Assembly: GCA_964428435.1 (NCBI GenBank)
Contig: CAYRYA010000004.1
Coordinates: 8,116 to 72,115 of the forward strand
Length of the DNA: 64,000 nt
Source: an uncultured Candidatus Saccharibacteria bacterium
GTDB lineage: Bacteria > Patescibacteriota > Minisyncoccia > Phycocordibacterales > DATDWN01
Direction: 5' to 3'
This document shows, one piece after another, positions 15,832 through 34,617 of this stretch. The notes beneath the pieces were generated by a model. It was not told the origin of the DNA and did not search any database. It saw only the letters and a program-made list of their open reading frames with translations. How positions within the stretch are numbered: the stretch's first letter is position 1; every line of letters starts with the position of its first letter. A program made the translations under genes and the position numbers.

Positions 15832-15922
15832 TTTTTAGATTAATGATTTTGGATTTTTGATTAATGAATGGGATTTTTCTTATTCTTTAATCTTTAATCT
15901 TTAATCTTGCTTCCTTAATCTT
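15832..15922. repeat. GATTAATGA...TTAATC 5'-UTR element (family 2), full copy
   Basis: gattaatgattttggatttttgattaatgaatgggatttttcttattctttaatctttaatctttaatctt between rplF and rplR. Confidence 0.7.
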
Positions 15923-15927
15923 GACCT

Positions 15928-16461
15928 TTACGCGGATTTCTTACCTTGCTTACGCTTGATCACTTCACCTTCATATCGAAGACCTTTACCTTTGTATGGC
16001 TCTGGTTTTTTCCAATCTCGAACCATTGCAGCAAATGCTCCCACCTCTTCTGTGTTTATTCCAGAAATAGTAATAACATTTTTCTCAGCTGTCACTTTTA
16101 GAGACGCAGGAATATCAATATGTACTGGATGTGAAAACCCAAGAGCAAGTACAAGCTGTGTACCTTTTACTTCAGATTTGTATCCGATACCTTCTAGAAT
16201 AAGTTTTTTAACAAATGGTGTATGCACACCTTTGATCATATTGGTAATATGTGACCCATATGTTCCCCACAATGCTCTATTTGCAATTGTTTCTTTTAAT
16301 GGTGCAAGAGTGATTGTTTCTGGAGTAATAGTAAGTGCAACCTGATCAGAAAAGTGTTTTGACAATGTACCCTGAGGACCTTTTACAGTGAAAAGACCTG
16401 AAGTAAATGTAACTTCTGTTCCCTTCGGTATGGTAATTATTTTTTTTCCTATACGTGACAT
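15928..16461 (-). CDS. rplF: 50S ribosomal protein L6
   Basis: 177 aa; MSRIGKKIITIPKGTEVTF typical L6. Confidence 0.9.
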   Translation of the reverse strand: MSRIGKKIITIPKGTEVTFTSGLFTVKGPQGTLSKHFSDQVALTITPETITLAPLKETIANRALWGTYGSHITNMIKGVHTPFVKKLILEGIGYKSEVKGTQLVLALGFSHPVHIDIPASLKVTAEKNVITISGINTEEVGAFAAMVRDWKKPEPYKGKGLRYEGEVIKRKQGKKSA

Positions 16462-16467
16462 GTTTTT

Positions 16468-16545
16468 TTGGATTAATGATTTTGGATTCTTGATTAATGA
16501 ATGGGATTTCTCTTATTCTTTAATCTTTAATCCTTAATCTTGTTT
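16468..16545. repeat. family 2 5'-UTR element, full copy
   Basis: ggattaatgattttggattcttgattaatgaatgggatttctcttattctttaatctttaatccttaatcttg between rpsH and rplF. Confidence 0.7.
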
Positions 16546-16551
16546 CTTACT

Positions 16552-16983
16552 CTACCAGAGTGTACATAACGCTTCTCCTCCGACCTTTTCTTTTCGAGCA
16601 ACCTCATCAGAAATCACTCCTTTTGGAGTTGATATAACCATAATACCGTAACCATTTTTTACTGGTCTGATTTCAGTTGCTTTGATATATACTCGCTTTG
16701 AACTTTTTGAAACTCGCTTTACTCCTCGAATCTTTGGTGATCCGTCTGATTCGTATGCAAGTGTTACCTCAATATACTTAATTACTTTTTTTCCTTTCTT
16801 TGTGGCACCTTTAATGAACCCTGCTTTTGCAAGTACATCAAGAATTGCCATCTTAAGTTTAGAGTACGACAACACAACAGTTTCCTTGCGGACCTGTCCT
16901 GCGTTGTATATCTCATTAATCATTGCTGCAATTGGATCTGTCATATTATTTCGTTGGGAGTATTTCAGGCCAAGAGGGCCCAA
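16552..16983 (-). CDS. rpsH: 30S ribosomal protein S8
   Basis: S8 signature (TDPIAAMINEIYNAGQVRKETV...). Confidence 0.9.
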   Translation of the reverse strand: MGPLGLKYSQRNNMTDPIAAMINEIYNAGQVRKETVVLSYSKLKMAILDVLAKAGFIKGATKKGKKVIKYIEVTLAYESDGSPKIRGVKRVSKSSKRVYIKATEIRPVKNGYGIMVISTPKGVISDEVARKEKVGGEALCTLW

Positions 16984-16986
16984 AAC

Positions 16987-17172
16987 TTACCACGATGATT
17001 TTTTAATTCCAGGGATTTTCCCTTCGTTGGCAAGTTCGCGGAAGCAGATACGGCAGAGATCAAAATCTCTCATATATCCATGCTTTCGACCACATCGAAA
17101 ACATCGGTTTACCTTCTTTGTAGTAAACTTAGCTTTCTTTAATGATCGTGCGATTACTGATGTTTTTGCCAT
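16987..17172 (-). CDS. rpsZ: 30S ribosomal protein S14 type Z (zinc-binding)
   Basis: 61 aa; [23 protein letters not shown] with CxxC...CxxC. Confidence 0.9.
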
Positions 17173-17226
17173 TGTTATTAATTTATACGAGCCTCATCCT
17201 AACAGGAAGTGCGGCCCAAGTCAAAC

Positions 17227-17799
17227 TTATTTTCTTTTAATTACCTTCACTTTTGGATACCCCTCATCCTTCTTAAATGGGAAACCAAGATGAGTAAGGA
17301 ACGCTTTTGTCTCAAGTGGGTTTGAAATATTTGTACCTACGGTTACCGCAAGTCCAAATACATCTTTAAGTTCCTCGTCTGCTGACTCAGGAAAAATAGT
17401 GTTTTCTTTAATCCCAAGAGTATAGTTACCCATTTCATCGATACCTTTTGCAGAGATACCACGGAAGTCTTTTGTTCGAGGAAGTGCAATATTTACAAGT
17501 CGTTCAAGGAAATCATACATTCGCTTCCCTCGGAGAGTAATCTGAATACCTACAGTGTCTCCTTGTCGAACCTTAAACGCAGCAACTGACTGTTTTGCGC
17601 CCTTTTTTACAGGTTTCTGTCCAGTAATATCAGCAAGTCTACTGTATGCATGCTCTATTTTTTTCTTATCTTTAAAAGATCCCACTCCAGCAGAAACAAC
17701 CACCTTTAAAATTTTTGGTGCCTGCATAGCATTTTTATACCCAAACTCCCCTTTGAGAGCTCCGTATGCTTTTTCTACTTTGTCTTTAATGTGTTCCAT
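17227..17799 (-). CDS. rplE: 50S ribosomal protein L5
   Basis: 190 aa; L5 conserved core (GDTVGIQITLRGKRMYDFLERLVNIALPR). Confidence 0.9.
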   Translation of the reverse strand: MEHIKDKVEKAYGALKGEFGYKNAMQAPKILKVVVSAGVGSFKDKKKIEHAYSRLADITGQKPVKKGAKQSVAAFKVRQGDTVGIQITLRGKRMYDFLERLVNIALPRTKDFRGISAKGIDEMGNYTLGIKENTIFPESADEELKDVFGLAVTVGTNISNPLETKAFLTHLGFPFKKDEGYPKVKVIKRK

Positions 17800-17808
17800 G
17801 TTATTTTT

Positions 17809-17886
17809 TTGGATTAATGATTTAAGATTTTGGATTAATGAATGGGATTTTTCTTATTCTTTAATCTTTAATCCTGATTCTTTAAT
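17809..17886. repeat. family 2 5'-UTR element, full copy
   Basis: ggattaatgatttaagattttggattaatgaatgggatttttcttattctttaatctttaatcctgattctttaatc between rplX and rplE. Confidence 0.7.
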
Positions 17887-18192
17887 CTATACTGTGTTTC
17901 CTGATTTCTGTGCCACTCGAACCTTTTTTCCGTCTATCACTTTCTTTGAGATTCGTGTACCTTTACCTGTCTTCGGATCTACAAGAAGGACGTTTGAGGC
18001 ATGTATAGGGAGATTTTTTTCAATAATCTGACCTTTTTCACCACCACGACGCGCTCGAACATGAGCTTTAACCACATTTACACCTGACACAAGCACTTTT
18101 CCTTCACGAGGAAGCACCCGAGCAATTGTACCTGTTTTGCCCTTATCTTTTCCTGTAATCACTATTACTTTGTCGTCTTTCTTAAGTTTCAT
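17887..18192 (-). CDS. rplX: 50S ribosomal protein L24
   Basis: 101 aa; KOW motif MKLKKDDKVIVITGKDKGKTG. Confidence 0.9.
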   Translation of the reverse strand: MKLKKDDKVIVITGKDKGKTGTIARVLPREGKVLVSGVNVVKAHVRARRGGEKGQIIEKNLPIHASNVLLVDPKTGKGTRISKKVIDGKKVRVAQKSGNTV

Positions 18193-18325
18193 TTGTTTTT
18201 ATATGATTTATGCTTTGATACGAATATACGAATTGGAAACTTACGAATAGATTCGAATGAATGCTTTTAATTTCTTATTCGTAACCATTCGCATCATTCG
18301 TACATTCGCATATTCGTATGTTCAT
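18193..18325. repeat. TACGAAT/ATTCGTA palindromic intergenic element, copy 3
   Basis: gatacgaatatacgaattggaaacttacgaatagattcgaatgaatg...attcgtaaccattcgcatcattcgtacattcgcatattcgtatg between rplN and rplX. Confidence 0.7.
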
Positions 18326-18697
18326 CTATACCACCTCTGGGGCGAGTGAGATAATCTTCTGATACCCCGCTTCTCCGATCTCTCGGGGGATTGGTCCAAA
18401 CACACGACCAGCTACTGGTTCCTTCTTTTCTTTTGAAACAATAACTACTGCATTCTCATCAAATCGAATATATGAACCATCCTTTCTTCGAAATGGAGCC
18501 TTTTGTCGAACCACTACAGCATAGAGCACGTCTTTCTTTTTTGCTCCTTTTCGTGGTTCTGCTTTTTGAACAGAAAGAACAACCATCTCTCCCAATCGTG
18601 CATATCGCTTCTTTGAACTTCCAAGTACTTTGAAAATTCGTCCGATTTTTGCTCCGGTGTTATCTGCGATTTTAACAATTGATTGTGGCTGGATCAT
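18326..18697 (-). CDS. rplN: 50S ribosomal protein L14
   Basis: 123 aa; MIQPQSIVKIADNTGAK typical L14. Confidence 0.9.
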   Translation of the reverse strand: MIQPQSIVKIADNTGAKIGRIFKVLGSSKKRYARLGEMVVLSVQKAEPRKGAKKKDVLYAVVVRQKAPFRRKDGSYIRFDENAVVIVSKEKKEPVAGRVFGPIPREIGEAGYQKIISLAPEVV

Positions 18698-18703
18698 ATA
18701 ATT

Positions 18704-18973
18704 TTATTTAGTTACAACAACAAAATGCTTATCTTTTGAAATTGGTCGAGTTTCTTTAATCTCTACTTTATCCCCTACTTTATGAGCATTTCCTACATCA
18801 TGAGCTTTGAAACGCTTACTGATTTGCATGAATTTACCATACTTTGGATGCTTTACAAATCGGTTTACGAGTACTACCACAGTATCTTTCATTTTGTCAG
18901 ATACAACAATACCAGTAAGGATTCGTCCTTGTTCTGATTTCTCTGTATGTGGTTGTATTTTTTTTGTTGCCAT
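18704..18973 (-). CDS. rpsQ: 30S ribosomal protein S17
   Basis: 89 aa; GIVVSDKMKDTVVVLVNRFVKHPKYGKF typical S17. Confidence 0.9.
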   Translation of the reverse strand: MATKKIQPHTEKSEQGRILTGIVVSDKMKDTVVVLVNRFVKHPKYGKFMQISKRFKAHDVGNAHKVGDKVEIKETRPISKDKHFVVVTK

Positions 18974-18975
18974 AC

Positions 18976-19159
18976 TATTTATTTTACGTTAATTGCAGTC
19001 AAAATTCGTGCGATATCCTTTCGGATTGCATATCCTTCTTTTATATTTTTAACCTTACTACCAGCAACAGAAAAACGAAAATTTCGAAGTGCCACTCGTT
19101 TTTCACCGAGAAGAGCTTTAAGTTCTTTTTCTGTTTTATTTTTAAAATCTTTCATAACT
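18976..19159 (-). CDS. rpmC: 50S ribosomal protein L29 (not in supplied ORF track because <60 aa)
   Basis: Own translation of minus strand: MKDFKNKTEKELKALLGEKRVALRNFRFSVAGSKVKNIKEGYAIRKDIARILTAINVK, 59 aa, in the expected rplP-rpmC-rpsQ position. Confidence 0.75.
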
Positions 19160-19164
19160 CTATA

Positions 19165-19581
19165 TTATCGTGCTACTACTTTAGATTTAATAGGAAGTTT
19201 TGTTCCCGCCTTTCGAAGTGCCTCTTTTGCAATCGCTTCAGTAACACCATCAATTTCAAAAATGATTCGTCCTGGGAGCACTGGAGCAACATATGCAAAC
19301 AAATCTCCTTTTCCTTTACCGAGTTTTACTTCGGCTGGTTTTCGAGTAATTGGCATATCAGGGAAAATTCGAATCCACACTTTTCCAGTTTTACCCATTG
19401 CTCGTGAAAGCACCTTTCGAGCAGCTTCAATCTGATTTGATCGAATACGTGCATCAGTAGTTGCTTTAAGCCCAAATGAACCAAACGCAAGTGTTGCGCC
19501 ACGTGTCGCTGTACCAATACGAGACGTATTTCGTCTCATGGTATGCCATTTTCTGTATTTTACTTTTTTAGGTAGCAACAT
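19165..19581 (-). CDS. rplP: 50S ribosomal protein L16
   Basis: 138 aa; MLLPKKVKYRKWHTMRRNTSRIGTATRG typical L16. Confidence 0.9.
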   Translation of the reverse strand: MLLPKKVKYRKWHTMRRNTSRIGTATRGATLAFGSFGLKATTDARIRSNQIEAARKVLSRAMGKTGKVWIRIFPDMPITRKPAEVKLGKGKGDLFAYVAPVLPGRIIFEIDGVTEAIAKEALRKAGTKLPIKSKVVAR

Positions 19582-19591
19582 ATACGTTTAG

Positions 19592-20248
19592 TTATTTAGC
19601 AAAGATTTCTCCCTTGTAAATCCACACTTTGATACCGATCGCTCCGTATGGAAGACGTGCAGGATATGCTGCATAATCTACATCAGCTCGAAGAGTTTGA
19701 AGTGGAATTCGACCTTTTTTCATTTTTTCCTGTCGCGCCATTGACGCACCTCCTAGACGACCTGAGAGTTCAATTTTCACTCCGAGTACATCTCGGTTCG
19801 CCATTACTTTTTCAATAATCTGCTTCCCTACTCGTCGGAAAGGCATACGTTTTTCAAGACCTTCTGCAATCATGTGTGCCACAATTGTTGCATTTGTTTC
19901 TGGAGATTTTACCTCTTTGATGTCGATTTTTACTTCACCACCTGACACAAGATTTTTCTTAGCCATGAATGCCAAAATTTCATCTCGAAGTTTTGTTGCA
20001 CCTTCACCTGATCGTCCGATGATAGCACCTGGTCGTGAAGTTTCGATAATAATTCGAAGCGCTTTTTCACTTCGTTCCATTTGGATGTCAGCTACATACT
20101 GACCTCGCATTTTTTTCTCAAGAAATTCACGAATCAACACATCACTCTTCAAGAATTCTTTGAATTTAGTTTTCACGCCAAACCATCGAGATTTCCAATC
20201 TCTAATGATTCCAAGTCTATGTGAATATGGGTGTACTGTGTGTGACAT
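19592..20248 (-). CDS. rpsC: 30S ribosomal protein S3
   Basis: 218 aa; KH domain and S3 C-terminal domain. Confidence 0.9.
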   Translation of the reverse strand: MSHTVHPYSHRLGIIRDWKSRWFGVKTKFKEFLKSDVLIREFLEKKMRGQYVADIQMERSEKALRIIIETSRPGAIIGRSGEGATKLRDEILAFMAKKNLVSGGEVKIDIKEVKSPETNATIVAHMIAEGLEKRMPFRRVGKQIIEKVMANRDVLGVKIELSGRLGGASMARQEKMKKGRIPLQTLRADVDYAAYPARLPYGAIGIKVWIYKGEIFAK

Positions 20249-20333
20249 GTTTGTTAATTGAAAGTTTAAAAATCAAAATTTAAAATATTTTCTCCTACTG
20301 TATTCTTAATTTTTAAATTTTGATTTGTCATTT

Positions 20334-20750
20334 TTATTTTTGCTTTTTTACTTTTGATTTAACTTCTTTTGCCTCTGCTTTTTCCTCCATTACTACCTTA
20401 GTCTTCTTTGCTTTTGGAAGTACTTCCTCGAGAGTAACAGAGATCATACTTGTTCGCTTTCGGATAGGGTGAGCTGATCCTCGAGCTGCAGGCATTCGTC
20501 GGTACAGAGTTTTGCCACTGTTTACTTCCACAGTTTTTACAACCAAGTTTTCTGTAGGCATTGATTGTGCTTTTGCGTTTGCAAGAGCTGATTCGATGAG
20601 CTTTCGGATCGGAGCTGAAGCTCGTTTCTCAGTAAACTGCATTGAAAGAATAGCGTCAGTTACCTTTTTACCACGCACAAGGTCAGCAACTACACGAACT
20701 TTTCGTGGAGACTGTCGAAGATTTGAAAGTGTAGCGGATGCTTTTGCCAT
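20334..20750 (-). CDS. rplV: 50S ribosomal protein L22
   Basis: 138 aa; L22 core plus K/E-rich C-terminal tail. Confidence 0.9.
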   Translation of the reverse strand: MAKASATLSNLRQSPRKVRVVADLVRGKKVTDAILSMQFTEKRASAPIRKLIESALANAKAQSMPTENLVVKTVEVNSGKTLYRRMPAARGSAHPIRKRTSMISVTLEEVLPKAKKTKVVMEEKAEAKEVKSKVKKQK

Positions 20751-20759
20751 GGTATTAGA

Positions 20760-21104
20760 TTATTTTTTCTTAGCGTCAGGAGCTGCTTTAGATGCTTTTG
20801 CAGCAGCAATTTCAGACTCTTTCTTTTTAATTTCGAGCTCTTTCTGCATTTTACCTCCGTGTTTAAGGAATTTCTTTGTAGGAGAAAATTCGCCCAATCG
20901 GTGACCTACCATATCTTCAGTTACGAGAACTTCAATATGAGTCTTGCCGTTATGTACACCAAAGTTGAATCCTACCATTTCAGGCGAGATTACACATGCT
21001 CGTGACCATGTTTTAATAACCCCAGTTTCAATAGGTTTTTTACCCTCAATCTTTTTGAGAACTCGTGGGTCTACATATGGTCCTTTGTGTGATGATCGTG
21101 TCAT
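20760..21104 (-). CDS. rpsS: 30S ribosomal protein S19
   Basis: 114 aa; [19 protein letters not shown]...NGKTHIEV typical S19, with K/A-rich C-terminal extension. Confidence 0.9.
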
Positions 21105-21234
21105 GAAAAATTGATGAAAAATACTCTTTATTTTGCAAGAGTGTTAAATACCCTAAACAAAAACGAGATGCAAGAGGAAAACTCTTACGTGCGCTCTATA
21201 CTATACAAAATGCGACGATATGTCAAACGGATTA

Positions 21235-21275
21235 GAGTCCATCAAGTCAAAAGTCCTTAAAGTCTGTAAAGTCGG
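21235..21275. repeat. 9-bp-periodic GACTT/AAGTC array immediately upstream of rpsS promoter
   Basis: gagtccatcaagtcaaaagtccttaaagtctgtaaagtcgg; on the minus strand followed by TTGACA-N15-TATAGTATA. Confidence 0.55.
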
Positions 21276-21362
21276 ATATTTAAGGGTAATTTTGGGCAAA
21301 ATTAAAGAGCGACCCATCCCCGCAATGGAGACTGTCGCTCTTACAGAAAACTGATTTTTCAT

Positions 21363-21713
21363 CTAGTGATAGTGAGTTACCCCTGGAAAATTCCCAGTAT
21401 TTACCCTTCTCCATTCCGAGAACCCCATCAACCAGCTTCCGTCAGGTTCACAATCCTTATAAACCTGTTCCATCTCACAGAGCTTACAGTACCTGAAATG
21501 TTGGAGGATGGGAGCACCACCGTATTCATTCCGATGTTTTTCAGTACAATACCTGAGACTGAACCTCTTGCAGTCGAGACAGAAGTACCTGCTAGACCCA
21601 AAAATAACACCAATCACAGAATAAGTTATGTACCCCCCTAAGCTCATTGATACAAGGAACCCAAACAGTACATACACTAAAAGCGCTAACTTAACTACAA
21701 AACCTTTCAACAT
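21363..21713 (-). CDS. small membrane-anchored Cys-rich protein, hypothetical (inserted between rplB and rpsS)
   Basis: 116 aa; two N-terminal hydrophobic helices then CLDC...C...CKLC...C; own TTGACA-like promoter after the rplB terminator and its own downstream hairpin. Confidence 0.45.
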   Translation of the reverse strand: MLKGFVVKLALLVYVLFGFLVSMSLGGYITYSVIGVIFGSSRYFCLDCKRFSLRYCTEKHRNEYGGAPILQHFRYCKLCEMEQVYKDCEPDGSWLMGFSEWRRVNTGNFPGVTHYH

Positions 21714-21756
21714 GTCACTCTCCTGGTGATTAAGCTACCACACAAAGTATTATTGT

Positions 21757-21797
21757 CAAAAAACACCCCTATCTTTTTATAAGGGGTGCTTTTTGTT
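21757..21797 (-). terminator. terminator immediately after rplB
   Basis: GCACCCCTTATAAAAAGATAGGGGTGTTTTTTG on minus strand, 1 nt after rplB stop. Confidence 0.6.
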
Positions 21798-22640: not shown

Positions 22641-22736
22641 AAATGTAAAATTGAAATCTCAAAAATAAAAATGTTGTATGCTTAATTTTTTAACTCTGCT
22701 TTGTCATTTTTCATTTTCATTTTTGATTTTTGATTT

Positions 22737-23018: not shown

Positions 23019-23027
23019 ATTATTTTA

Positions 23028-23690: not shown

Positions 23691-23702
23691 GATTTTAAAA
23701 TT

Positions 23703-23797
23703 AGTCATAAAGTCTATCCAGTCCTTCAAGTCCGTAAAGTCGGTTGCGTTTGGCATCTGACTTGATGGACTTTCAACTTTATGAACTTTTGACTTCT
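23703..23797. repeat. inverted pair of 9-bp-periodic GACTT/AAGTC arrays between rplC and rplD
   Basis: cataaagtctatccagtccttcaagtccgtaaagtcgg ... ctgacttgatggactttcaactttatgaacttttgacttc; the two halves are mutual reverse complements. Confidence 0.6.
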
Positions 23798-24960: not shown

Positions 24961-24993
24961 CAAAAACCACCCTTTCGGGCGGTTTTTGTTTAC
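24961..24993 (-). terminator. terminator immediately after rpsJ
   Basis: AAACAAAAACCGCCCGAAAGGGTGGTTTTTGTTTT on minus strand. Confidence 0.6.
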
Positions 24994-25015
24994 TTTTGAC
25001 TTTACGGACTTTTGA

Positions 25016-25381
25016 CTAAATTATCTTTACATCGATATTAACACCAGATGGAAGAGAGAGATTTGTGAGTGATTCCATAATCTTTGGAGTCGGGTTCAAA
25101 ATATCAATCAATCGCTTATGAGTTCTCATTTCAAACTGCTCTCGAGCGTTTTTATACACAAACGAAGCTCGGTTTACTGTGTATTTCTTGATCTCAGTTG
25201 GAAGCGGGATTGGACCCAAAACCTTTGCATCGTATCGAAGAGCAGTATCCATGATCTGTCGTACTGAGATATCGAGTACTTTGTACTCATATGCTCGTAC
25301 TCGGATTCGCAATTTAGAAATCGCGTCCTCTTTTGCAGCTTTTTTAGGAGCTTTTTTTGTTGTTGTTTCTTTCGTTGCCAT
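25016..25381 (-). CDS. rpsJ: 30S ribosomal protein S10
   Basis: S10 core (KLRIRVRAYEYKVLD...) with short K/A-rich N-terminal extension; start at MATKETTTKK. Confidence 0.9.
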   Translation of the reverse strand: MATKETTTKKAPKKAAKEDAISKLRIRVRAYEYKVLDISVRQIMDTALRYDAKVLGPIPLPTEIKKYTVNRASFVYKNAREQFEMRTHKRLIDILNPTPKIMESLTNLSLPSGVNIDVKII

Positions 25382-25757: not shown

Positions 25758-25836
25758 ATTTGAGTTTACTTTAGACAATCACACTCTGAGGATTTTTCGC
25801 TCAGGTCGCGGATAAAATTGGAAAAAGGATCGGAGA

Positions 25837-25890
25837 TGTACTTAATGGTACATTGAGAACCTTTTTTCAATTTTAAACGATGAGATGAGT
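25837..25890 (+). repeat. conserved ~55-70-nt motif, copy 1 (second copy in clpP 5'-UTR)
   Basis: gtacttaatggtacattgagaaccttttttcaattttaaacgatgagatgagtg versus 59411-59464; conserved GUAC-loop-GUAC hairpin with different loops. Confidence 0.5.
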
Positions 25891-25914
25891 GAAAAAGACC
25901 AGAGCAGACTTACT

Positions 25915-27111
25915 TTAGGCAACAATTTTTGTAACGACACCTGCGCCAACAGTCTTGCCTCCCTCTCGGATCGCAAAACGTGTATTGTCTTCAAGCGCAA
26001 CTGGAGCAATCAATTTAACTTTGAATGTTGCTGTGTCTCCTGGCATAACCATTTCAACACCTTCTTTCAAAGTCACGTCTCCTGTTACGTCTGTAGTTCG
26101 GATGTAGAACTGTGGCTTGTAACCTGAGAAGAATGGAGTATGTCGTCCACCTTCTTCTTTCTTAAGAACGTATACTTCTGCTTCAAATTCTGTGTGTGGA
26201 TTTACAGATTTTGGCTTAGCAAGAACCTGTCCTCGAGAAATGTCTTCTTTCTTAGCACCTCGGAGGAGGATACCTGCGTTGTCTCCTGCTTGTCCTGATT
26301 CAAGAGATTTGTTGAACATTTCGATACCAGTCACTGTAAACTTAGTGATATCCTTGAGACCAACGATCTCGATTTCTTCACCTACCTTTACAACACCTCG
26401 TTCAATACGTCCTGTTACCACTGTTCCTCGTCCTTCAATAGAGAAGATATCCTCTACTGGCATAAGGAATGGTTTATCCAAATCTCGCTCTGGCATTGGA
26501 ATATATGTATCGAGTGCGTTTGCAAGCTCCAATACTTTCTTTGACCATTCATCGTTGTTGTCCGCTGCTTCAAGAGCTTTGAGTGCTGATCCTCGGATAA
26601 CTGGTGCATTATCACCATCAAATCCGTTCTTTGAAAGGAGTTCTCGAACTTCAGCTTCCACAAGGTCAATAAGATCATTATCTGGAACCATGTCGCATTT
26701 GTTCAAAAATACGATAATTTTTGGCACACCAACTTGTTTTGCCAAAAGCACATGTTCTCGAGTCTGAGGCATCGCACCGTCAGTAGCCGCTACCACAAGC
26801 ACTGCACCGTCCATCTGAGCAGCACCAGTAATCATGTTTTTGATGTAGTCAGCGTGACCTGGCGCGTCGATGTGAGCGTAGTGTCGAGTTGGTGTTGAGT
26901 ACTCGTTGTGAGAAAGCGCAATAGTAATTCCTCGTGCTTTTTCCTCTGGAGCTGAGTCGATTTCACCTACTCCTTTGATTTTAGATGAATATCCTTCTCC
27001 TGCTCGACCAAGTACGGTCAAGATAGCTGCTGTTAATGTTGTCTTACCATGGTCAACGTGTCCAATAGTACCTACGTTGAGGTGTGGTTTTGATCGATCA
27101 AAATCTGCCAT
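25915..27111 (-). CDS. tuf: elongation factor Tu
   Basis: [20 protein letters not shown]-domain motifs; start at [25 protein letters not shown]. Confidence 0.95.
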
Positions 27112-27282
27112 ATTTTTATATAAATTATGCGTATAAATTACTAATAATTGCCATTTTGGAAACTCCAAAAACTTGATGTTCGAGAAAAACCAAATTTTGT
27201 GAACTTCTACAGCTTAAAATCGCGTACAAGCGATGCCACTAAATATAAACGAAAGAGACCCTAGAGTCAACAAGAAAAAAAC

Positions 27283-27570: not shown

Positions 27571-27573
27571 ATG

Positions 27574-30500
27574 TTATTTTTTCAATTTAAAGAACATTTT
27601 GTTTTTTTCCACTGCTTTTCGAGCAAAATCAAATGCTTGTTCAAAATCACTCTTTACACCAAACATACCAGTACCAAGTGAACGGTCATACTGCAAACCG
27701 ACACCCTCATCAATGACACTACCTGTACCAATCTTCTGCCCATTGAGTAATATTGTAAGCTCTGAGCCTTTCTGAAACACATTGATTCGTCCTCCGTTAT
27801 ACTCGATTGGGTACCGTAAGTCAATCATATCTGCAGGTAAATCCATAAGTCTTTTTTCGAGTTCAATATTGTATGCAGTACGAATATTTTTGAATTTTGG
27901 ATCAAATTGATACTCAGGTTTAAGTGGTAATTTTCCTGAAATAATATCTGAAGGTCGTATTTGTTCAGTATTCACTGAGACAATATCTTTAAAATTAACA
28001 GAACGAGCTGGGATATTCTCTATCGATGAAGACGCTACGATAGTTGCTGCATCAGCAGCTATAGATTCTCCTGGTGTAGCTGATACTTTCAATTCTGGTG
28101 TACTTTCAAGAACTGAAGGGTGTGTAGCAGGTGCAACCTGAGGAGGTTGTGTTTTAACAACATGATCTTCGACAGGAGTCGGATCAGTTGAAGTTGACAG
28201 ACCGTCCGCGTCAAACATTTTTCCTGTATAAGGATGTATTGCGCCATCACTTTCCATAAGTATCTCCGTTGCACCACTTCCATCACGCACCAAGGAAAGA
28301 TTTCCTTCTGCATCGATAGCAAGTTTTTCTCCTTTGAACCCGAATGCACTTTCTGCAGCTTGTCCTGGTTTAAAGAGACCTAAATCGAGAGCAATCTTTT
28401 GTGGAGACTGAGCAAATAGTTTTTCAAATGCAGGTGTAAGCGACTGACCTTGAGTCGCTTTTTTAAGTTGATCTATTGTGTCAATAAAACCTTTACTTGA
28501 AAGCCCTACTTCAACTGGTTGCATTGTTACAGGAATACTCTGCTCCACAACAGAGGCGGTAGGTTTTTCAATAATGGCTGTCTTTTGTGTAGGAGCATCT
28601 TCCTTAATGAGTTTATTCCACCATGAAGATTTTGTTGGAGCAGGAACATCAACAACAGAATGTGCTGTTGTAAGTGCATCATGTGCAGCATTTATTCCTG
28701 CGCCAGTACCCACGGACGTAGCTCCTCCCACTGCCATCATAAGCGCAGCTTTTTTTATACGATCACGTTTTGCCTGAACTTCTGCTTCTGACTCATATGC
28801 CTCAAAATCTCCAATTTTTTCATCCTGTTGCCCACCGTCAATTGTCGCGAAATTTTTCAAAGCTTTTTCTTTTTCAGCGAGCATCTTTTCTTGTTGTTGT
28901 TTACCTACCACAGACCCAGCATACTTTGCTCCCATTGCACCAGCGAAACCTCGCGCTGCTCGCATTGATGCAGTTGCAGCAAAACCTCCTACACCACCCG
29001 AAACGAGAGAAAAGAATGCTGATGATAGTGCAACACGAGCAAGGACAGGTAACTGTGCCCATTTATCCATAGACCTTGCCATAATACCTCTTTCTTTTTC
29101 AGGAAGAGCTTCTGCAATAAGCGTATTGAGCGTGTCTCGCTCCTTCTTAAACTGTTCCATTACTCCAATATCAAGATGTTTCGTTGTTTTTTTCTCAATA
29201 ATAGAAAAATCATGCGGCCGAGAAATTGTTTCCTCTACCTCAACATGACGTCGTGCAATAAAATTTCTCAATGCACGACCAGCCTCCATGTATTCTTTTT
29301 TAGCATCGAGATAGGCCTGATCTATATCTCCTTCAGCATCAGGACGCTGTTTAGACGGAACACCAAGTTCAGTCATAATCTTCTCATACACTTTCTTGCT
29401 TGAACGAATCTTTTCTTTACGAAGCGCTTCTTGTGCTGCAAAATGCTTAAGTGACTCCTCCAATTTAGACGAGAGTTCTTTTTCTATTTTTTCTGATTGA
29501 TCTTGCGTCATTGGTCCTGCTGGCTCAGGATATGCTGCTCCAATGAACTGATGCACAGCATTTGGAGAAATCTCAATTCGCTGAGCCTTGAGTGCGGCGT
29601 CACTGACACGCTCATCAAGACTTCTTTCAGATAAAGGTTTTTCAGTATATACCGGCGGTGGAGGTGCTACACCTCGTTCAGCAACATCTTTTACTGTAAT
29701 CACAGGGTGAGATACCACCTGAGTAGGTCTTATGGTGGTGACAGGGGGTATGATTTTCTTTGGACTCTGCAGAGGGATACTTGATCCCACAACCGGTGGT
29801 GGCTCTGGCGTCAACCAATCAGGGTAAGTTGTTTCTGTATCTTTCCCTTGCGCAATCTGTACCAAACTTTCATATTCACTTGGTAATAGTACAGCTTTAA
29901 CATCAGCTAAATTTTTAATGATATCTTCAATTTTTTCACCATCTACTTTGAATCTAAAAAATGTTTTTAGTGCTGTTTTTATGTTCTTATTTTCAATATC
30001 ATATTTTTTTATCAATCCGTTGAACGTATCCACTATTTTCTTATACGTAGGATTTTGAGGTTTTTCAACCATATCAGGACGCATCATAAATGCATTATGT
30101 ACTTTTGCCTCAGTAGTGTTGTATCCAGACGCATCATCAGTCATACCAGGACGCATCATAAATGCGTTGCGTACCTTTGCTTCAGTATTATATCGCGAAG
30201 CATCATCAGCCATCTTTTCTGGTTGAGGTGTTGACGTATCGAAACCTGATTGACCCAAAAAACCTTCGCCTGAAGGATCTATCCCCTCAATATTTCCTTG
30301 GTTTAATATATCCTCAACCCACACCGCACCATCTACAAGAGTACTCTTTACTTTATCTACCTGTGAAAGTTCTTGTGAACGATCAGATCCCCCCGCAAAG
30401 CCAAAGGTTGGTCTAAATGTTCCATCAACACCACCCTTCAAAAGATTTCTATCTAAGAGACTCTCTAATGCCCTACTAATACGTAGACGAAGATTTGATC

Positions 30501-30909
30501 CTCTTCCAGATCGAGGATCACCTTCACCTTTGTTTCGTAGAATTGCGTTAACAATCTGATCCGGTGTGAGCGGAGTTTCTTTTGTAACACTTATAACATC
30601 TTTCTCTATATCAGAAATTGGAAATTGTCCTGCAGTAATTTCTACTGGCTTTAACTCATTTTTTTGTAGAGGTGGTATGGAAACACGTATTGGTACTATT
30701 TTTTTAGAAACAGTAGATATTCTGTTTTTCAAAATTTTTCCAGATTCTTTTGCCGCCTGCTGAATACCTTCTTCAATCTCTTGTTCTTCTAACACACCGA
30801 AAGGATTTTTAACCCCTGTGTCTTCAAGCATTTCTGCTAACTCCTTAAGATATTTTTCGCGGTCTGGATTAAGTGGTTCTTTTTCGTATATTTTCTGAGA
30901 ATCTTCCAT
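27574..30909 (-). CDS. large (~1112 aa) hypothetical protein with two Gly/Ala-rich hydrophobic segments, inserted between fusA and tuf
   Basis: Continuous ORF. Start set at MEDSQKIYEKE (TACAAT 6 nt upstream, leaderless-like). The annotated TTG start at 30978 lies inside the fusA terminator hairpin. Tandem 22-aa repeat, Pro-rich linker, GxxxG-rich hydrophobic segments; no catalytic motif recognised. Confidence 0.7.
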   Translation of the reverse strand: MEDSQKIYEKEPLNPDREKYLKELAEMLEDTGVKNPFGVLEEQEIEEGIQQAAKESGKILKNRISTVSKKIVPIRVSIPPLQKNELKPVEITAGQFPISDIEKDVISVTKETPLTPDQIVNAILRNKGEGDPRSGRGSNLRLRISRALESLLDRNLLKGGVDGTFRPTFGFAGGSDRSQELSQVDKVKSTLVDGAVWVEDILNQGNIEGIDPSGEGFLGQSGFDTSTPQPEKMADDASRYNTEAKVRNAFMMRPGMTDDASGYNTTEAKVHNAFMMRPDMVEKPQNPTYKKIVDTFNGLIKKYDIENKNIKTALKTFFRFKVDGEKIEDIIKNLADVKAVLLPSEYESLVQIAQGKDTETTYPDWLTPEPPPVVGSSIPLQSPKKIIPPVTTIRPTQVVSHPVITVKDVAERGVAPPPPVYTEKPLSERSLDERVSDAALKAQRIEISPNAVHQFIGAAYPEPAGPMTQDQSEKIEKELSSKLEESLKHFAAQEALRKEKIRSSKKVYEKIMTELGVPSKQRPDAEGDIDQAYLDAKKEYMEAGRALRNFIARRHVEVEETISRPHDFSIIEKKTTKHLDIGVMEQFKKERDTLNTLIAEALPEKERGIMARSMDKWAQLPVLARVALSSAFFSLVSGGVGGFAATASMRAARGFAGAMGAKYAGSVVGKQQQEKMLAEKEKALKNFATIDGGQQDEKIGDFEAYESEAEVQAKRDRIKKAALMMAVGGATSVGTGAGINAAHDALTTAHSVVDVPAPTKSSWWNKLIKEDAPTQKTAIIEKPTASVVEQSIPVTMQPVEVGLSSKGFIDTIDQLKKATQGQSLTPAFEKLFAQSPQKIALDLGLFKPGQAAESAFGFKGEKLAIDAEGNLSLVRDGSGATEILMESDGAIHPYTGKMFDADGLSTSTDPTPVEDHVVKTQPPQVAPATHPSVLESTPELKVSATPGESIAADAATIVASSSIENIPARSVNFKDIVSVNTEQIRPSDIISGKLPLKPEYQFDPKFKNIRTAYNIELEKRLMDLPADMIDLRYPIEYNGGRINVFQKGSELTILLNGQKIGTGSVIDEGVGLQYDRSLGTGMFGVKSDFEQAFDFARKAVEKNKMFFKLKK

Positions 30910-30969
30910 GTGTACATTGTATCTCGGTAGTGACCACAGACGCAATGAAAAAAAATTTCGTATGTGTAT

Positions 30970-31006
30970 AAAAAACAAAACTGGTATTTCACCAGTTTTG
31001 TTTTTT
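30970..31006. terminator. fusA terminator (perfect palindrome)
   Basis: AAAACAAAACTGGT-ATTTC-ACCAGTTTTGTTTT. Confidence 0.65.
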
Positions 31007-31083
31007 CATTTTTTATGAGTTACAACTTACCTTGAGGGTTTATGCTTGAGTTCGAGGCAAGAGTCTTGAGAGAATTTGTAGAC

Positions 31084-31172
31084 GTGAGAAGTGAGTGACC
31101 TCACTTCGCAAGACCTTGCCAGAGCTTTTGTAATCAAAAGATCGACAAGGTATACAGTTCCTGTAAGGAACA
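31084..31172. repeat. second copy of the 85-nt structured core found at 3658-3742
   Basis: GTGAGA-hairpin-CGCAAGACCTTG...TTTTGTAATCAAAAG...GTA.ACAGTTCCTGTAAGGAAC shared; the two hairpins differ in sequence but keep pairing. Confidence 0.5.
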
Positions 31173-31234
31173 GTTGTACGGCGGAAAATTCTATCAGACG
31201 AGTAACGAAGAAATCGAGCAAAAGGACCAAGGTG

Positions 31235-33376
31235 TTACTTCCGAGACTCCACAATAGTTTTCTCGACGTTAGGTGGAACCACTTCATAATGATCAAACTC
31301 CATTGTTACCGATCCACGACCCTGAGTCATAGAACGAATATCTGTGGTGTATCCAAACATTTCTGATAGAGGAACTTTTGCTTTGATAACTTTCAAACCA
31401 AATCGCTCTTCCATACCTTCGATCTGACCTCGTTTTGATGAGAGTGAACCAGTCACATCTCCCATGAACTGTTCTGGCATTACCGCCTCTACTTTCATAA
31501 TCGGCTCAAGAATAACAGATTTTGCTCTCTTTGCTGCTTCCTGGAATGCCTGTGATGCAGCAATTTTGTATGCAATTTCAGATGAGTCCACGTCGTGGTA
31601 AGAACCGAATGTAAGTTCACACGATACGTTTACCATCTTGTATCCTGCCACAATACCTCGATCCATCGCCTCTTTAACACCCTTCTCTACAGCAGGAATA
31701 AATTCTTGTGGGATCACACCTCCTTTAATAGAGTCAATGAATTCAAACTCATCATATCGCTTCACGTTTTTAGCAACTTTCTCACCTTCAGCAAGTGGCT
31801 CAAGCGGCTTGATAGAGATCTTCACGTGACCGTACTGACCTTTACCTCCCGTCTGTTTGATGTATTTGTGTTCAGCTTCAGCAGAACCAAGAATAGTTTC
31901 TCGATATGCCACCTGTGGTTTACCGATATTTACTTCCACACCAAACTCTCGTTTCATACGATCAACCATGATTTCAAGGTGAAGCTCACCCATACCTGAA
32001 ATAATAGTTTCTCCTGTTTCAGTGTTTGATGAAATTCTAAATGTTGGATCTTCATCTCCAAGTTTCTTCAATGCCATACCCATTTTCTCTTGGTCAGCTT
32101 TTGTTTTAGGTTCAATTCGGAGAGATACCACTGGTTCAGCAAACTTGATTGGGTCAAGAATAATTGGTTTGTTTTCATCACAGAATGTATGCGATGTTTT
32201 CGCATTCTTGAGACCTACCGCAGCCGCGATTTCTCCTGCGTATACTTTTTTCACTTCTTCTCGGTCATTTGCCTGAAGTCGCACGATACGTCCAAGACGC
32301 TCTTTTTCACCTGTAGTTGAGTTATAGATATATGAACCTGATTCTACTGTACCTGAGTACACACGGAAGAATGTAAGCTGTCCTACGAATGGGTCTGTCT
32401 GGAGTTTGAATGCAAGTGCTGCAAATGGTTCATCGTCAGATGCCTTTCGAGAAATCTCCTCACCAGTCACTGGATCTGTACCGTGTACTGGTGGAATATC
32501 AAGTGGACATGGGAGGTAGTCTACCACTGCGTCAAGTACAAGCTGTACTCCTTTGTTTTTGAGTGCTGAACCAGTAAACACTGGGAAGAGTTTATTTGCG
32601 ATTACTGCTTTTCGAATCACTGCTTTCAATTCATCAATTGAAAATTCTTTTCCTTCGAGATATCCAGACATCATCGCATCATCAAACTCAACAGCCTTCT
32701 CTACAAGCTCTGCTCGGTACTTCACTGCATCTGCCATGTATTCTGCTGGGATTTCTTCCTCTCTGATCTTAATACCCATTTCACCTTCGAAATAATATGC
32801 TTTCATTTTCAAAAGGTCGATTACTGCTTCGAAGTTAGATTCTTCACCAATTGGAAGCTGCATTCGAACTGCATTTTTGTTGAGCCGTTCTACGATTGAC
32901 TTGAATGATCGATCAAACGATCCTCCTGTTCGGTCGAGTTTATTGATGAAACAGATTCGAGGCACATGATATTTATCTGCCTGTCGCCATACAGTTTCTG
33001 ACTGTGGTTCTACACCCGCTACACCATCAAAAACTACCACTCCACCGTCGAGCACTTTCAAGGATCGCTCTACTTCTACGGTAAAGTCTACGTGACCTGG
33101 TGTGTCGATAATATTGAATCGCAATTTCTTTGAAATATCTGTTCCCATGTATGTTGGGTTCCAGAAACAGGTAATAGCCGCAGCGGTAATAGTGATACCA
33201 CGCTCTTTTTCTTGTTCCATCCAGTCAGTGGTTGCTGCACCATCGTGCACTTCACCGATCTTGTGAGACATACCTGTGTAATACAAAATACGCTCTGATG
33301 TTGTAGTTTTACCTGCGTCAATGTGAGCAATAATACCGAAGTTTCGTACTCTCTCGAGTGGATAATCGCGATTCAT
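31235..33376 (-). CDS. fusA: elongation factor G
   Basis: [23 protein letters not shown]-motifs and full domain II-V; start at [25 protein letters not shown]. Confidence 0.95.
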
Positions 33377-33425
33377 AAAATAATGATTAAAGATTAATGA
33401 TAAAAGATTAAAGAATAATACAGAA
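33377..33425. repeat. family 2 5'-UTR element, partial, upstream of fusA
   Basis: aatgattaaagattaatgataaaagattaaagaataat; on minus strand TCATTAATC..TTAATCATTATTTT-ATG. Confidence 0.5.
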
Positions 33426-33564
33426 ATGCATACACAAATCAATACAACTCAAAAAAGCTGAGGCGACTTGAATACCCAAAACTATATACTAAAAGCGCCC
33501 TGTGGGCAACTTGGTTGACATATATTTTGTACATGTTTAAATAGTCTTCATGTCTGTTCTTTCA

Positions 33565-33795
33565 ACAACCACCCCCCCAGAGACGGCGTCTTTCGCTGCG
33601 GGCCAAGAAGCTTGGCACAATGGGAATCGCGTATTCATCGTCATGGAGGTAAATCGTCGGCTTAAACCTAACGAGCCCTCTTACAAAGTCCGCCAAGGAT
33701 TGACCGCCATCACAGTCTCGCACAGCGAGCTCTCCCTGACAAGGCGCTAGCACCTATTTCTCCAACCTCGCCTCCCCTAGTTAGGGGAGGCGTTA
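33565..33795. other. GC-rich (~55%) ORF-poor island between rpsG terminators and fusA; possible structured RNA or foreign remnant
   Basis: Local GC well above neighbourhood. Ends in perfect hairpin CGCCTCCCCTAGTTAGGGGAGGCG. Flanked by two further terminator hairpins (33808-33850, 34030-34060). Only short overlapping ORFs (63-66 aa) with no recognisable features. Confidence 0.3.
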
Positions 33796-34029
33796 ACTTA
33801 TATAAAACAATACCATTTAAAAAACATCCTTCCGGATGTTTTTTAAATTACCATGCACTGTTTTATTTCGACTAGCTTCGAGTGAAATAGAAGAGTAATC
33901 TCTTTTATTTTCGAGATGCGACGTCGAAACCAGAGGTAATCCTCTTTATTTTGCGTAGTAAAAACCTCAAAAAGTTTTTTAAATGGATGGGCCGCCAAGA
34001 GTACTCGGCGTGCTCCATTTTGCAACTGG

Positions 34030-34060
34030 AAATTAAAACCACCCTTTCGGATGGTTTTAA
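34030..34060 (-). terminator. terminator after rpsG
   Basis: AAAACCATCCGAAAGGGTGGTTTTAATTT on minus strand, right after rpsG stop. Confidence 0.6.
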
Positions 34061-34061
34061 T

Positions 34062-34532
34062 TTACCAGGCAAAATGGGCAAACGCTTTGTTGGCTTCAGC
34101 CATTTTATGAGTGTTTTCTCGTTTCTTCACTGCTTCACCCTCATTTTTAGCTGCAAGCATGATTTCTTCTGCAAGCTTTTCTGCCATCGGAGAGCCTTTT
34201 TTAGATCGAGCTGCTTCTACAATCCATTTCATTGAAAGATAGTTTCGTCGCTCTGGTCGAACTTCTCGAGGAATCTGGTAGTTTGCACCTCCCACTCGTC
34301 GTGATCGTACCTCCATCAAAGGTCCTGTGTTCTTGAGTGCTGTATCGAAAACCTCCATAGGATCTTCAACCTTTGCCTTTTCTTTAATAGTCTCGAGTGC
34401 ACCATATACAATACCTCGTGCAGTCTCTTTCTGTCCTCGTTCCATAACATAGTTAATAAACTTAGAGATTTTCTCTGAGTTGTATACGTGGTCCGCAGAC
34501 ACCATATTTCGATTTGTTACTTTTCGTCGCAT
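34062..34532 (-). CDS. rpsG: 30S ribosomal protein S7
   Basis: 156 aa; S7 conserved core. Confidence 0.9.
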   Translation of the reverse strand: MRRKVTNRNMVSADHVYNSEKISKFINYVMERGQKETARGIVYGALETIKEKAKVEDPMEVFDTALKNTGPLMEVRSRRVGGANYQIPREVRPERRNYLSMKWIVEAARSKKGSPMAEKLAEEIMLAAKNEGEAVKKRENTHKMAEANKAFAHFAW

Positions 34533-34540
34533 GTTTTGTT

Positions 34541-34617
34541 TGGATTGATGATTATAGATTAAGGATTAATGAAAGGGATTTCTCTGATTCTTTAATCTTT
34601 AATCCTGTATCTTTAAT
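34541..34617. repeat. family 2 5'-UTR element, full copy
   Basis: ggattgatgattatagattaaggattaatgaaagggatttctctgattctttaatctttaatcctgtatctttaatc between rpsL and rpsG. Confidence 0.7.

Follow-up and report, generated by a model that had tools for sequence, protein, structure and literature searches.

Heptameric repeats upstream of eight genes

We analysed a stretch of 64,000 nt (hereafter the window) of contig CAYRYA010000004.1 (assembly GCA_964428435.1) from an uncultured Candidatus Saccharibacteria bacterium. GATTAAR/TTAATC heptamer arrays occur in the window at eight sites only, directly upstream of rplR, rplF, rplE, rpsG, rplT, ndk, fusA and ppa. All eight positions had been named in a preliminary description of this DNA, and the arrays are present at each of them. 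They represent a real, non-random family of dispersed palindromic repeats that is orientation-locked, intercistronic and lineage-specific. The identity of the neighboring gene products L18, L6, S8, L5, L24, S7, S12, NDK, L20 and inorganic pyrophosphatase was confirmed with NCBIfam. The label fusA is taken from the preliminary description and from a 735-aa open reading frame (ORF) downstream of rpsL/rpsG, which has a 94% identical counterpart in the related locus L050; no family-library scan underlies it.

A repeat search returned a direct-repeat family of 82 nt with four copies of 79–100% identity (15832-15913, 16465-16546, 17806-17887, 34537-34618), as well as inverted matches to this family at 8220-8273, 33376-33426 and 55239-55276. 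The 18-mer core of the elements, AAATCCCATTCATTAATC, occurs five times in the window when up to one mismatch is allowed, compared to 0.16 times in shuffled sequences. For the pattern TTAATCN3AATCN3AATC, likewise with at most one mismatch, we counted 23 overlapping matches versus 0.08 in shuffles, all of them within the eight sites. The hexamers GATTAA and TTAATC are not in excess window-wide (27 and 37 observed, 28 and 34 expected from composition), but they are clustered.

All eight sites are in sense orientation relative to the mRNA of the downstream gene, which bears out the single, uniformly oriented family described before. The copies upstream of rplT and ppa are located on the plus strand, the other six on the minus strand, and the GC skew keeps one sign over most of the window. 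Since copies are sense on both DNA strands, their orientation tracks transcription and not the replication strand. The earlier division into four full copies (rplR, rplF, rplE, rpsG) and four partial ones had to be modified: the rplT copy is also full and carries a loop insertion. The copies upstream of ndk and fusA are indeed partial and consist of the right arm only, and ppa is preceded by a split copy with left-arm words further upstream.

Element anatomy and predicted folding

In mRNA sense, a full copy begins at the stop codon of the upstream gene and is composed of 3–5 GAUUAAR heptamers (left arm), an apex GAAUAAGAGAAAUCCCAUUC, 3–5 NNNAAUC heptamers (right arm) and an A-rich tail of ~10 nt that is followed by the AUG. 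The stop codon is often the UAG of the first word (Table 1). The elements thus run from the upstream stop codon to the next start codon, an intercistronic position that is absent from the preliminary description. Right-arm heptamers are complementary to the left arm and free of G, as is the A-rich tail. As the right arms in the window lack G, no AUG can occur within them. The last 50 nt before each of the eight start codons contain 0–2 G and 9–13 C. Self-similarity at a distance of 7 nt is significant at 8/8 sites (p 0.002-0.008). The distance between the end of the element and the start codon is 3–13 nt at seven of the eight sites and ~19 nt at rplT.

The two arms had been described as nearly complementary, and they are predicted to pair. 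All five full copies fold as imperfect hairpins with free energies of -12.1 to -15.6 kcal/mol (z -2.3 to -5.4 versus dinucleotide shuffles), the stems being helices of 4–7 bp interrupted by A-rich internal loops of 1x1 to 3x3 nt. The hairpin is retained when folded together with 40–45 nt of flanking coding sequence. In this context little pairing is predicted for positions -15 to -1 (P(unpaired) 0.72-0.87 in 4/5 full copies). It had been proposed that the stem either sequesters or presents the start region. Because the start codon and the last ~12–15 nt before it lie outside the stem and are unpaired, the module presents the start rather than sequestering it. By eye, the rplT copy contains a reading frame of four codons, AUG-AUU-AAG-GAU-UAA, which is the only small ORF found in the elements.

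Table 1. Positions of the heptamer elements and of further features in the window (coordinates refer to the window; free energies in kcal/mol; bits are covariance-model scores).
Feature	Coordinates	Strand	Description
rplF-to-rplR spacer	15827..15927 (101 nt)	-	Full element 15832-15922; dG -12.1, z -2.3; 83.6 bits sense, 38.8 antisense; mRNA sense: (GAUUAAR)x4-5, apex GAAUAAGAAAAAUCCCAUUC, (NNNAAUC)x4, tail UAAAAAUUUUU, AUG
rpsH-to-rplF spacer	16462..16551 (90 nt)	-	Full element 16468-16545; dG -15.6, z -5.4; 94.2 bits; plus-strand coordinates of parts: left arm ~16513-16541, apex ~16497-16512, right arm ~16472-16496, A-rich tail 16462-16471
rplX-to-rplE spacer	17800..17889	-	Full element; dG -14.8, z -4.6; 97.1 bits; first word UAGAUUAAAG provides the rplX stop codon (17887-17889)
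rpsL-to-rpsG spacer	34533..34620	-	Full element; dG -15.5, z -3.5; 96.2 bits; rpsL stop codon is the UAG of the first word
rpmI-to-rplT spacer	8158..8270	+	Full element with ~17-nt apex insertion (CAUUCAAAAACUCUU), also present in the L059 ortholog; 75.4 bits
map-to-ndk spacer	11335..11381 (47 nt)	-	Right arm only, G-free; fills the spacer, ends 3 nt before AUG; words CUUUAUC AUUAAUC CCUAAUC CUUAAUC; period 7, p=0.008
fusA upstream region	33377..33442	-	Promoter-like TTGATT-16-TATTAT (33442 to 33415); right-arm-only, G-free array (33411 to 33385); AUG 33376
ppa upstream region	55168..55286	+	Split element, 43.8 bits sense; left-arm words 55168-55185; GC-rich palindrome and TTTTT ~55190-55224; promoter-like TTTGCA-18-TATTAT 55221-55250; G-free right-arm array 55252-55280; AUG 55287
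TACGAAT/ATTCGTA word hairpins	12151-12215, 14339-14462, 18193-18325, ~57075-57100		Same architecture; before map, secY, rplX
AAAAATC/GATTTTT word hairpins	20249-20333, 22641-22736, 45490-45555		Before rpsC, rplB
AAAGTCC/GGACTTT arrays	12839-12886, 21234-21273, 23750-23795, 24973-25034, 43904-43945, 44313-44342, 53391-53415, 61828-61875		8-nt words; both orientations relative to genes
Leaderless-type boxes (examples)	2280-2295, 5036-5050, 6186-6200, 12833-12846, 43088-43101		-10-like boxes close to start codons
Structured element of ~135 nt	7839-7971	+	Between ORF 7329-7838 and rpmI
Structured element of ~135 nt	25784-25894		Intercistronic
Structured element of ~135 nt	59338-59468	-	Intercistronic
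Structured element of ~135 nt	36864-36898		Fragment
rpsG-to-fusA gap	33443-34061 (620 nt)	-	Partly GC-rich, terminator-like hairpins
TCGA-rich element (~70 nt)	~33870-33950		..TCGACGTCGCATCTCGAAAATAAAAGAGATTACTCTTCTATTTCACTCGAAGCTAGTCGAAAT..; within the rpsG-to-fusA gap
tmRNA gene	3148-3558	+	RF00023, 64.7 bits
ORF of 1134 aa	27574-30978	-	Between fusA and a downstream ORF of 417 aa (25915-27168)

Translation starts

The upstream arm had been reported to contain a Shine-Dalgarno (SD)-like AAGGA motif. We could not support this: the GGA lies 55–65 nt before the start codon, within the paired part of the stem, and hairpins at the same junctions in relatives use quite different words without GGA. 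When considering the genes with ATG start in general, SD-like 4-mers at positions -22 to -4 were detected for 3 of 49, versus 8 in control windows and 8.1 predicted from random windows. Compact junctions in the same operons have the form UAA-N6-12-AUG, also without SD. G accounts for 8% at positions -10 to -1, and A for 43–46% around the start.

In addition, a -10-like box TANNNT is found exactly 6 nt before the ATG in 9/40 genes, compared to a background of ~1.8 per position (e.g. TATAAT-ACCCCC-ATG or TGTATAAT-TATTGT-ATG). Judging from these boxes, many first cistrons appear to have leaderless mRNAs. The genome shows no SD signal. Surveys report a loss of the anti-SD sequence for only part of the Parcubacteria (PMC9297842).

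Occurrence in related genomes

We searched 185,579 species genomes for exact matches to the 18-mer core, a scan that is blind to annotation, and obtained 62 loci. Genomes with several hits are two metagenome-assembled genomes (MAGs) named “uncultured Candidatus Saccharibacteria” and one lake MAG labelled Zambryskiibacteriota, whose ribosomal genes are 84–90% identical to those of the window. The related locus L014 is 90–98% identical to the window across the ribosomal operon. Locus L050 (JAPLZY010000028.1) carries the label Candidatus Zambryskiibacteriota, yet its rpsL-rpsG-fusA region shows 84–90% nucleotide identity to the window and holds the same element; its taxonomic label or binning looks wrong.

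As the preliminary description had proposed, a covariance model was used for the search; it was built from 13 copies and run on the window and the loci of the relatives. We identified 14 full copies in sense orientation and one reversed copy. The full copies score 62–97 bits, and the same copies read antisense score 31–52 bits. Weaker matches were obtained in L075/L076, L106 and L077/L080. In the 56 loci from other phyla the model found no match, and we therefore regard the 18-mer matches in these loci as chance. The single reversed copy is truncated and located at the 3’ end of a gene that resembles gltX by eye, at the end of an operon and before a terminator-like hairpin.

All full copies lie between co-directional genes. 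They precede rplR, rplF, rplE (two copies), rpsG (two), rplT (two), rplX and secY, two adjacent genes of L058 resembling rplM/rpsI by eye, and a gltX-like gene, likewise assigned by eye (two copies). Five of the seven true matches of the genome scan adjoin apparent ribosomal-protein genes. Since the scan was blind to annotation, this suggests a strong enrichment near such genes. No match to a 25-mer of the element was obtained in JGI metagenomes, an exact look-up of the L6 protein of the window returned no record, and a search for hairpins along the entire window with a blind sliding window was too unspecific to be of use.

Conservation and exchange of elements

Orthologous copies evolve slower than synonymous sites by a factor of 2–6, unpaired positions included, as judged by alignment with relatives. 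Over 85 nt, 3 substitutions and 1 indel separate the rpsL-to-rpsG spacers of the window and L050, with a divergence at 4-fold sites of 17.5% in rpsL, 29.6% in rpsG and 35.5% in fusA. Between the window and L014 the rplX-to-rplE element shows no substitution at all, with 10–15% divergence at the flanking 4-fold sites; the L014 copy has a 72-nt insertion in the loop. In comparison to L059, ~20% of the rplT element is different versus 22–41% of the 4-fold sites of its flanking genes, and ~20% of the ndk array versus 50% in the neutral comparison. The right half is the most conserved part of the element.

At other junctions the entire spacer has been replaced, even among genomes of ~92–98% identity. 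The rpsH-to-rplF and rplF-to-rplR spacers of the window and of L014 form unrelated hairpins, with GACUAA-type words in L014 in place of GAUUAAA. The genes rpsH, rplF, rplR and rpsE are only 2–5% different at 4-fold sites between the two, and homology at the swapped spacers stops exactly at the stop codon and the ATG. For rplN-to-rplX and rplO-to-secY the situation is reversed: GAUUAAA-type elements are found in L014 and TACGAAU-type hairpins in the window.

L143 and L145 are 99.1–99.6% identical to the contig of L014 (L144), and their rpsH-to-rplF junction is compact (17 nt). At this junction L144 carries an insertion of 189 nt (4831-5019) flanked by 8-nt direct repeats (compare L143 1309-1329 and L145 513-529). 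The insertion contains a run of N; it may represent a recently inserted cassette or, alternatively, an artefact of co-assembly. Word number varies as well: the ndk array, conserved in L059 and L143, is 47 nt long in the window and 41 or 50 nt in these orthologs. With near-identical copies, variable word number, loop insertions and whole-spacer replacement the family behaves like repetitive extragenic palindromes (REP) or miniature inverted-repeat transposable elements (MITE).

A wider set of hairpins with 7-nt periodicity

A protein-guided scan gave 80 Saccharibacteria-like ribosomal operons, whose L6 is 59–85% identical to that of the window. Their junctions differ by lineage: some are compact with 1–30 nt, others have spacers of 60–230 nt at varying junctions. 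Among 105 distinct spacers of 45–170 nt from these relatives, 69 fold with z < -2. In 65 significant hairpin spacers the median distance is 4 nt from the stop codon to the stem and 12 nt from the stem to the AUG. The stem words of the relatives are AAAGUYC/ACUUUA, GAGAUAU, UGAAUAA, UUAGGCA, CCCUAAA, ACGAAU and AAAAUCA, and the period is exactly 7 in 26 of 32 significantly periodic spacers. AAUUCA, AAUCCA and CAUUCA are common to the apices, with AATTC present in 14/33 apices versus 3/33 elsewhere. At the same junctions different relatives hold different word families, so that the structure is kept and the sequence is not. The GATTAAR elements are one member of a wider group of hairpin cassettes that share the 7-nt period.

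Two further properties of the heptamers gave little. A function as stop codon suppliers in all three frames is reflected in a weak excess at most (16 observed versus 9.2 expected, of 33), and right arms are not depleted of ATG (12 versus 12.2).

The window itself contains other word families (Table 1). TACGAAT/ATTCGTA hairpins share the architecture of the GATTAAR elements. In the case of the AAAAATC/GATTTTT hairpins the left arm reaches into the 3’-terminal part of the upstream gene and results in lysine-rich C-terminal tails. The AAAGTCC/GGACTTT arrays are probably the other repeat family mentioned in the preliminary description. Some of them are located directly upstream of -10-like boxes, e.g. 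before ORF 12230-12832, whose L143 ortholog is ADK.

Comparison with known repeats and structures

By analogy the elements are most like small co-transcribed palindromic repeats such as REP/BIME, Correia or ERIC to which a translational-coupling hairpin has been added. None of these known families fits, however, as the defining tests fail in each case, and no Rfam family or paper that we found describes the elements; this includes the literature on Saccharibacteria and on the candidate phyla radiation (CPR). An Rfam scan of the window at gathering threshold detected only tmRNA, and permissive scans of 15780-18380 and 33300-34700 gave noise (E >= 0.07).

REP/BIME of Enterobacteria and Pseudomonas are also short, imperfect, multi-copy palindromes inside operons that are co-transcribed, and known REPs can stabilise the upstream mRNA. 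In contrast to the present elements they are 35–40 nt long, carry a GTAG head recognised by a RAYT transposase, follow stop codons without fixed relation to the next start and occur in clusters of alternating orientation without tandem heptamers. The elements studied here measure ~80 nt, have a 7-nt period and a single orientation and end ~10 nt before the AUG. Their 5’ ends read TAGATTAA and GTAG is found in only 2 of 13 copies; on length and head sequence we rejected an assignment to REP/BIME. The copies identified are single (14 sense versus 1 reversed at an operon end), and none were seen in alternating clusters. No RAYT gene was seen in the 64 kb and in the 8-kb fragments of the relatives, where none was specifically searched for.

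Correia/NEMIS elements of Neisseria as well as ERIC, RUP and BOX resemble the family as intergenic inverted repeats that form hairpins, affect the expression of neighbors, may carry promoters and vary between strains. They differ by inserting in both orientations, by target-site duplications (TA for Correia), by a length of 100–150 bp and an aperiodic sequence, and by not being concentrated in ribosomal-protein operons. Terminal inverted repeats typical of MITEs are present: the left end TAGATTAAAG matches the right end TAGATTAATG when the latter is reverse-complemented, which is clearest for the rplR copy. Direct repeats do not flank the GATTAAA copies, and within operons only the sense orientation occurs. 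The 8-nt direct repeat was found only at the 189-nt insertion, which carries a hairpin of different words.

Structures acting on RNA were compared as well. Translational-coupling or ribosome-binding-site-masking hairpins, as in the ribosomal-protein operons of E. coli or in MS2, are intercistronic structures opened by the upstream ribosome. There, SD and start are part of the stem and the hairpin is unique to its operon, whereas here an SD is lacking, the start is located outside and one cassette serves many junctions. An SD-sequestering operator was rejected on the same grounds, since in context the AUG and the 15 nt before it are largely free of pairing. RNase III sites of T7 and plastid intercistronic elements are likewise hairpins between cistrons; their cleavage is documented, while the stems considered here are weak and interrupted. 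SD-independent A/U-rich leaders of the Bacteroidetes type or CAA-rich leaders similar to omega of tobacco mosaic virus share the G-free, unstructured leader of repeated words in front of the start and do not use an SD, but they have no complementary arm upstream and are not dispersed repeats.

We also rejected an intrinsic terminator, as none was found at the elements in our scan and their A/U-rich stems are followed by A-rich tails and not by a U-tract. Sigma-70-type promoters (-35 and -10 hexamers with 16–18 nt spacing) were not found in the three full copies scanned (14300-18400), and promoter-like sites are present only at the edges of the partial copies of fusA and ppa. What the elements do share with generic co-transcribed intercistronic hairpins is a location between genes of the same direction that no promoter or terminator separates, from which co-transcription follows as likely, and folding beyond that of shuffled sequences.

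Possible function

Few gene arrays of bacteria are as compact and conserved as ribosomal-protein operons, and fast-evolving repeat hairpins at many of their junctions are unexpected in a CPR lineage. Moreover, the lack of SD signals together with leaderless-looking starts raises the question of how internal cistrons are translated. Given these two features, internal cistrons would need re-initiation by ribosomes that have just terminated, or an unstructured, G-poor landing region. The elements are a concrete candidate for this, offering a G-free leader and, directly behind the upstream stop codon, an anti-leader to pair with it. Going by position and sequence, the ties to highly expressed translation genes and the slow evolution argue for a cis-acting role in expression.

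The reading that we favour, tentatively and at somewhat less than an even chance, considers the elements as co-transcribed REP/MITE-like repeats whose 3’ arm and A-rich tail act as an SD-independent leader and whose 5’ arm folds up the spacer. Together, 3’ arm and tail would provide a G-free leader, and the same array on its own forms the predicted 5’ untranslated region (5’UTR) of fusA and ppa and the whole ndk spacer. Pairing of the 5’ arm with the 3’ arm would fold away ~70 nt of spacer, leaving stop and start ~15 nt apart as in compact junctions, with the start codon on the open tail. With the stop codon adjoining the foot of the stem, ribosomes that terminate there would open its outer words, and the leader would become accessible. 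Downstream initiation might in this way be coupled to upstream translation without an SD. Of the shared module for translation initiation that had been suggested earlier, the tie to start codons holds, and its SD-like and start-masking aspects do not.

Several observations weigh against a leader and spacer-folding role. We infer every one of its functional steps. Antisense RNA of the elements folds 8–11 kcal/mol more stably than sense RNA in 5/5 full copies, contrary to the expectation of a better-folding sense RNA, and across the hairpins of the relatives we counted 116 G-U pairs in sense versus 212 in antisense, with A-C mismatches outnumbering G-U pairs in the sense RNA. The sense hairpin thus looks weakened through G-depletion rather than optimised, and as the antisense strand folds better we do not claim selection for a stable sense hairpin. 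Classical covariation is uninformative, since paired columns are invariant across the family (1/17 pairs with a compensatory change). Most junctions of the same operons carry no element at all, and from the compact 17-nt rpsH-to-rplF junction of relatives it follows that the element is dispensable there. The stretch of high identity reaches ~80 nt into rpsG, and short recombination tracts could partly explain the high identity of orthologs. Rapid cassette swapping, finally, looks like mobile DNA.

This last point leads to the alternative of selfish or neutral REP- or MITE-like repeats without a role in expression, which we consider rather unlikely. Such inserts would be tolerated because a self-folding insert spares translational coupling, and the sense-only orientation would reflect selection against reverse inserts. 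Multiple near-identical copies within one genome fit well, as do differing word numbers among orthologs, the replacement of whole spacers between genes only 2–5% apart at 4-fold sites, the L144 insertion with its direct repeat that is absent from L143 and L145, the reversed truncated copy at an operon end and the inferior folding of the sense RNA. The 2–6 times slower change of orthologous copies, also at unpaired positions, is difficult to reconcile with neutrality, and so is the enrichment beside ribosomal-protein and highly expressed genes, whose operons are normally the most compact and insertion-poor. Right arms are in addition reused as predicted 5’UTRs behind promoter-like sites, GATTAAA copies lack target-site duplications, and no transposase was seen in the window and the fragments of the relatives. 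The hairpins might alternatively punctuate the mRNA as signals for processing or stability, with RNase III cutting the stem, or RNase J cutting the apex or the A-rich tail. The cut would free a downstream mRNA with a short G-free leader, and the remaining 3’ hairpin would shield the upstream fragment from PNPase. RNase J, RNase III and PNPase are reported to be kept in CPR bacteria (PMC12641178). The exact placement between cistrons, the apparent preference of the organism for leaderless or short-leader mRNAs and the apex motif AAUUCA/AAUCCA that spans word families are in line with processing, and cleavage at the apex would yield the same right-arm leader as the promoter-like sites of fusA and ppa. 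With helices of 4–7 bp, 3x3 A-rich loops and -12 to -16 kcal/mol, however, the stems are weak. Such weak, interrupted stems are poor RNase III substrates and weak exonuclease barriers. As most junctions of the same operons have no hairpin either, we judge punctuation to be quite unlikely.

A sequence-specific array for a trans-acting factor, be it a multi-domain or oligomeric RNA-binding protein (S1, Csp or HutP-like), a global regulator of ribosomal-protein synthesis or a segment of 16S rRNA, would read the 7-nt-spaced AAUC(C) words or the conserved apex. It would account for the strict period (8/8 sites and 26/32 periodic hairpins of relatives), for single-stranded AAUC-word arrays directly upstream of ndk, fusA and ppa, for the conservation of unpaired positions and for the enrichment of AATTC in apices across word families. 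We nevertheless find it improbable: unrelated words occur at the same junctions in close relatives, so that a specific binder must co-evolve implausibly fast, no candidate factor was identified, and for the 16S variant the reported anti-SD loss concerns only some Parcubacteria (PMC9297842). Even less is to be expected from internal promoters or other DNA-level sites giving each downstream gene a short-leader transcript, an explanation that we hold to be highly improbable. The roughly constant distance to the ATG speaks for it, together with promoter-like hexamers that border the right-arm arrays of fusA and ppa on the 5’ side, two sites that have the 17-mer TGTATTATTCTTTAATC in common, and in the adk loop of L080 (TGTATAAT). 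Apart from the missing sigma-70-like sites noted above, the hexamer at the corresponding position of full copies is CATTCA, which does not end in the conserved T of a -10 box. In this genome -10-like boxes are located 6 nt from the ATG, a spacing that the elements do not offer, and the orientation of the elements follows transcription on both DNA strands.

A broader proposal, which we regard as speculative and on balance doubtful, is that the GATTAAA elements are one family of an undescribed superfamily of exchangeable cassettes with 7-nt period that punctuate ribosomal-protein and other high-expression operons of some Saccharibacteria and allow the expression of internal cistrons without SD. 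The superfamily might act by bridging stop and start for re-initiation or by cleavage that releases short-leader mRNAs. If the latter were true, it would be a bacterial counterpart of the tRNA punctuation of mitochondria or of plastid intercistronic elements, and the common 7-nt period and AAUYCA apex would mark one recognition mechanism. The universal 7-nt period, the common apex motif and the mechanism of cassette exchange are the features that could set the elements apart from known kinds of repeat. If the repeats were merely selfish, they would still add a new type of small dispersed repeat, found in ultra-small genomes and unusual in both its insertion niche and its turnover. In either case they are a pitfall in practice for gene callers and assemblers. 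Members of the Saccharibacteria, e.g. Nanosynbacter lyticus TM7x, are grown in culture together with their hosts, and targeting of pilin genes has been achieved in the group, so that reporter assays and end mapping may be feasible.

Further elements in the window

A second, unrelated structured element of ~135 nt, which is conserved, is also located in intercistronic spacers of the window (Table 1) and was found in L063, L069, L077, L083, L085, L088 and L143 (4677-4811). Its outer stem is formed by ACTTCCAAATTATGACCAATCTCATCGTCTAAAAT ... ATTTTATACGCGACC..GGTCAAATTTGAAAGTT, the antisense strand folds 13–17 kcal/mol better, and it has no Rfam match. Within the long rpsG-to-fusA gap some stretches are conserved in L050, and Rfam returned noise only; the gap could hold a small RNA. 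The TCGA-rich element in this gap recurs as the 72-nt loop insertion in the rplX-to-rplE element of L014 (L014 3445-3520). A tmRNA gene and an ORF of 1134 aa following fusA complete the features that we recorded.

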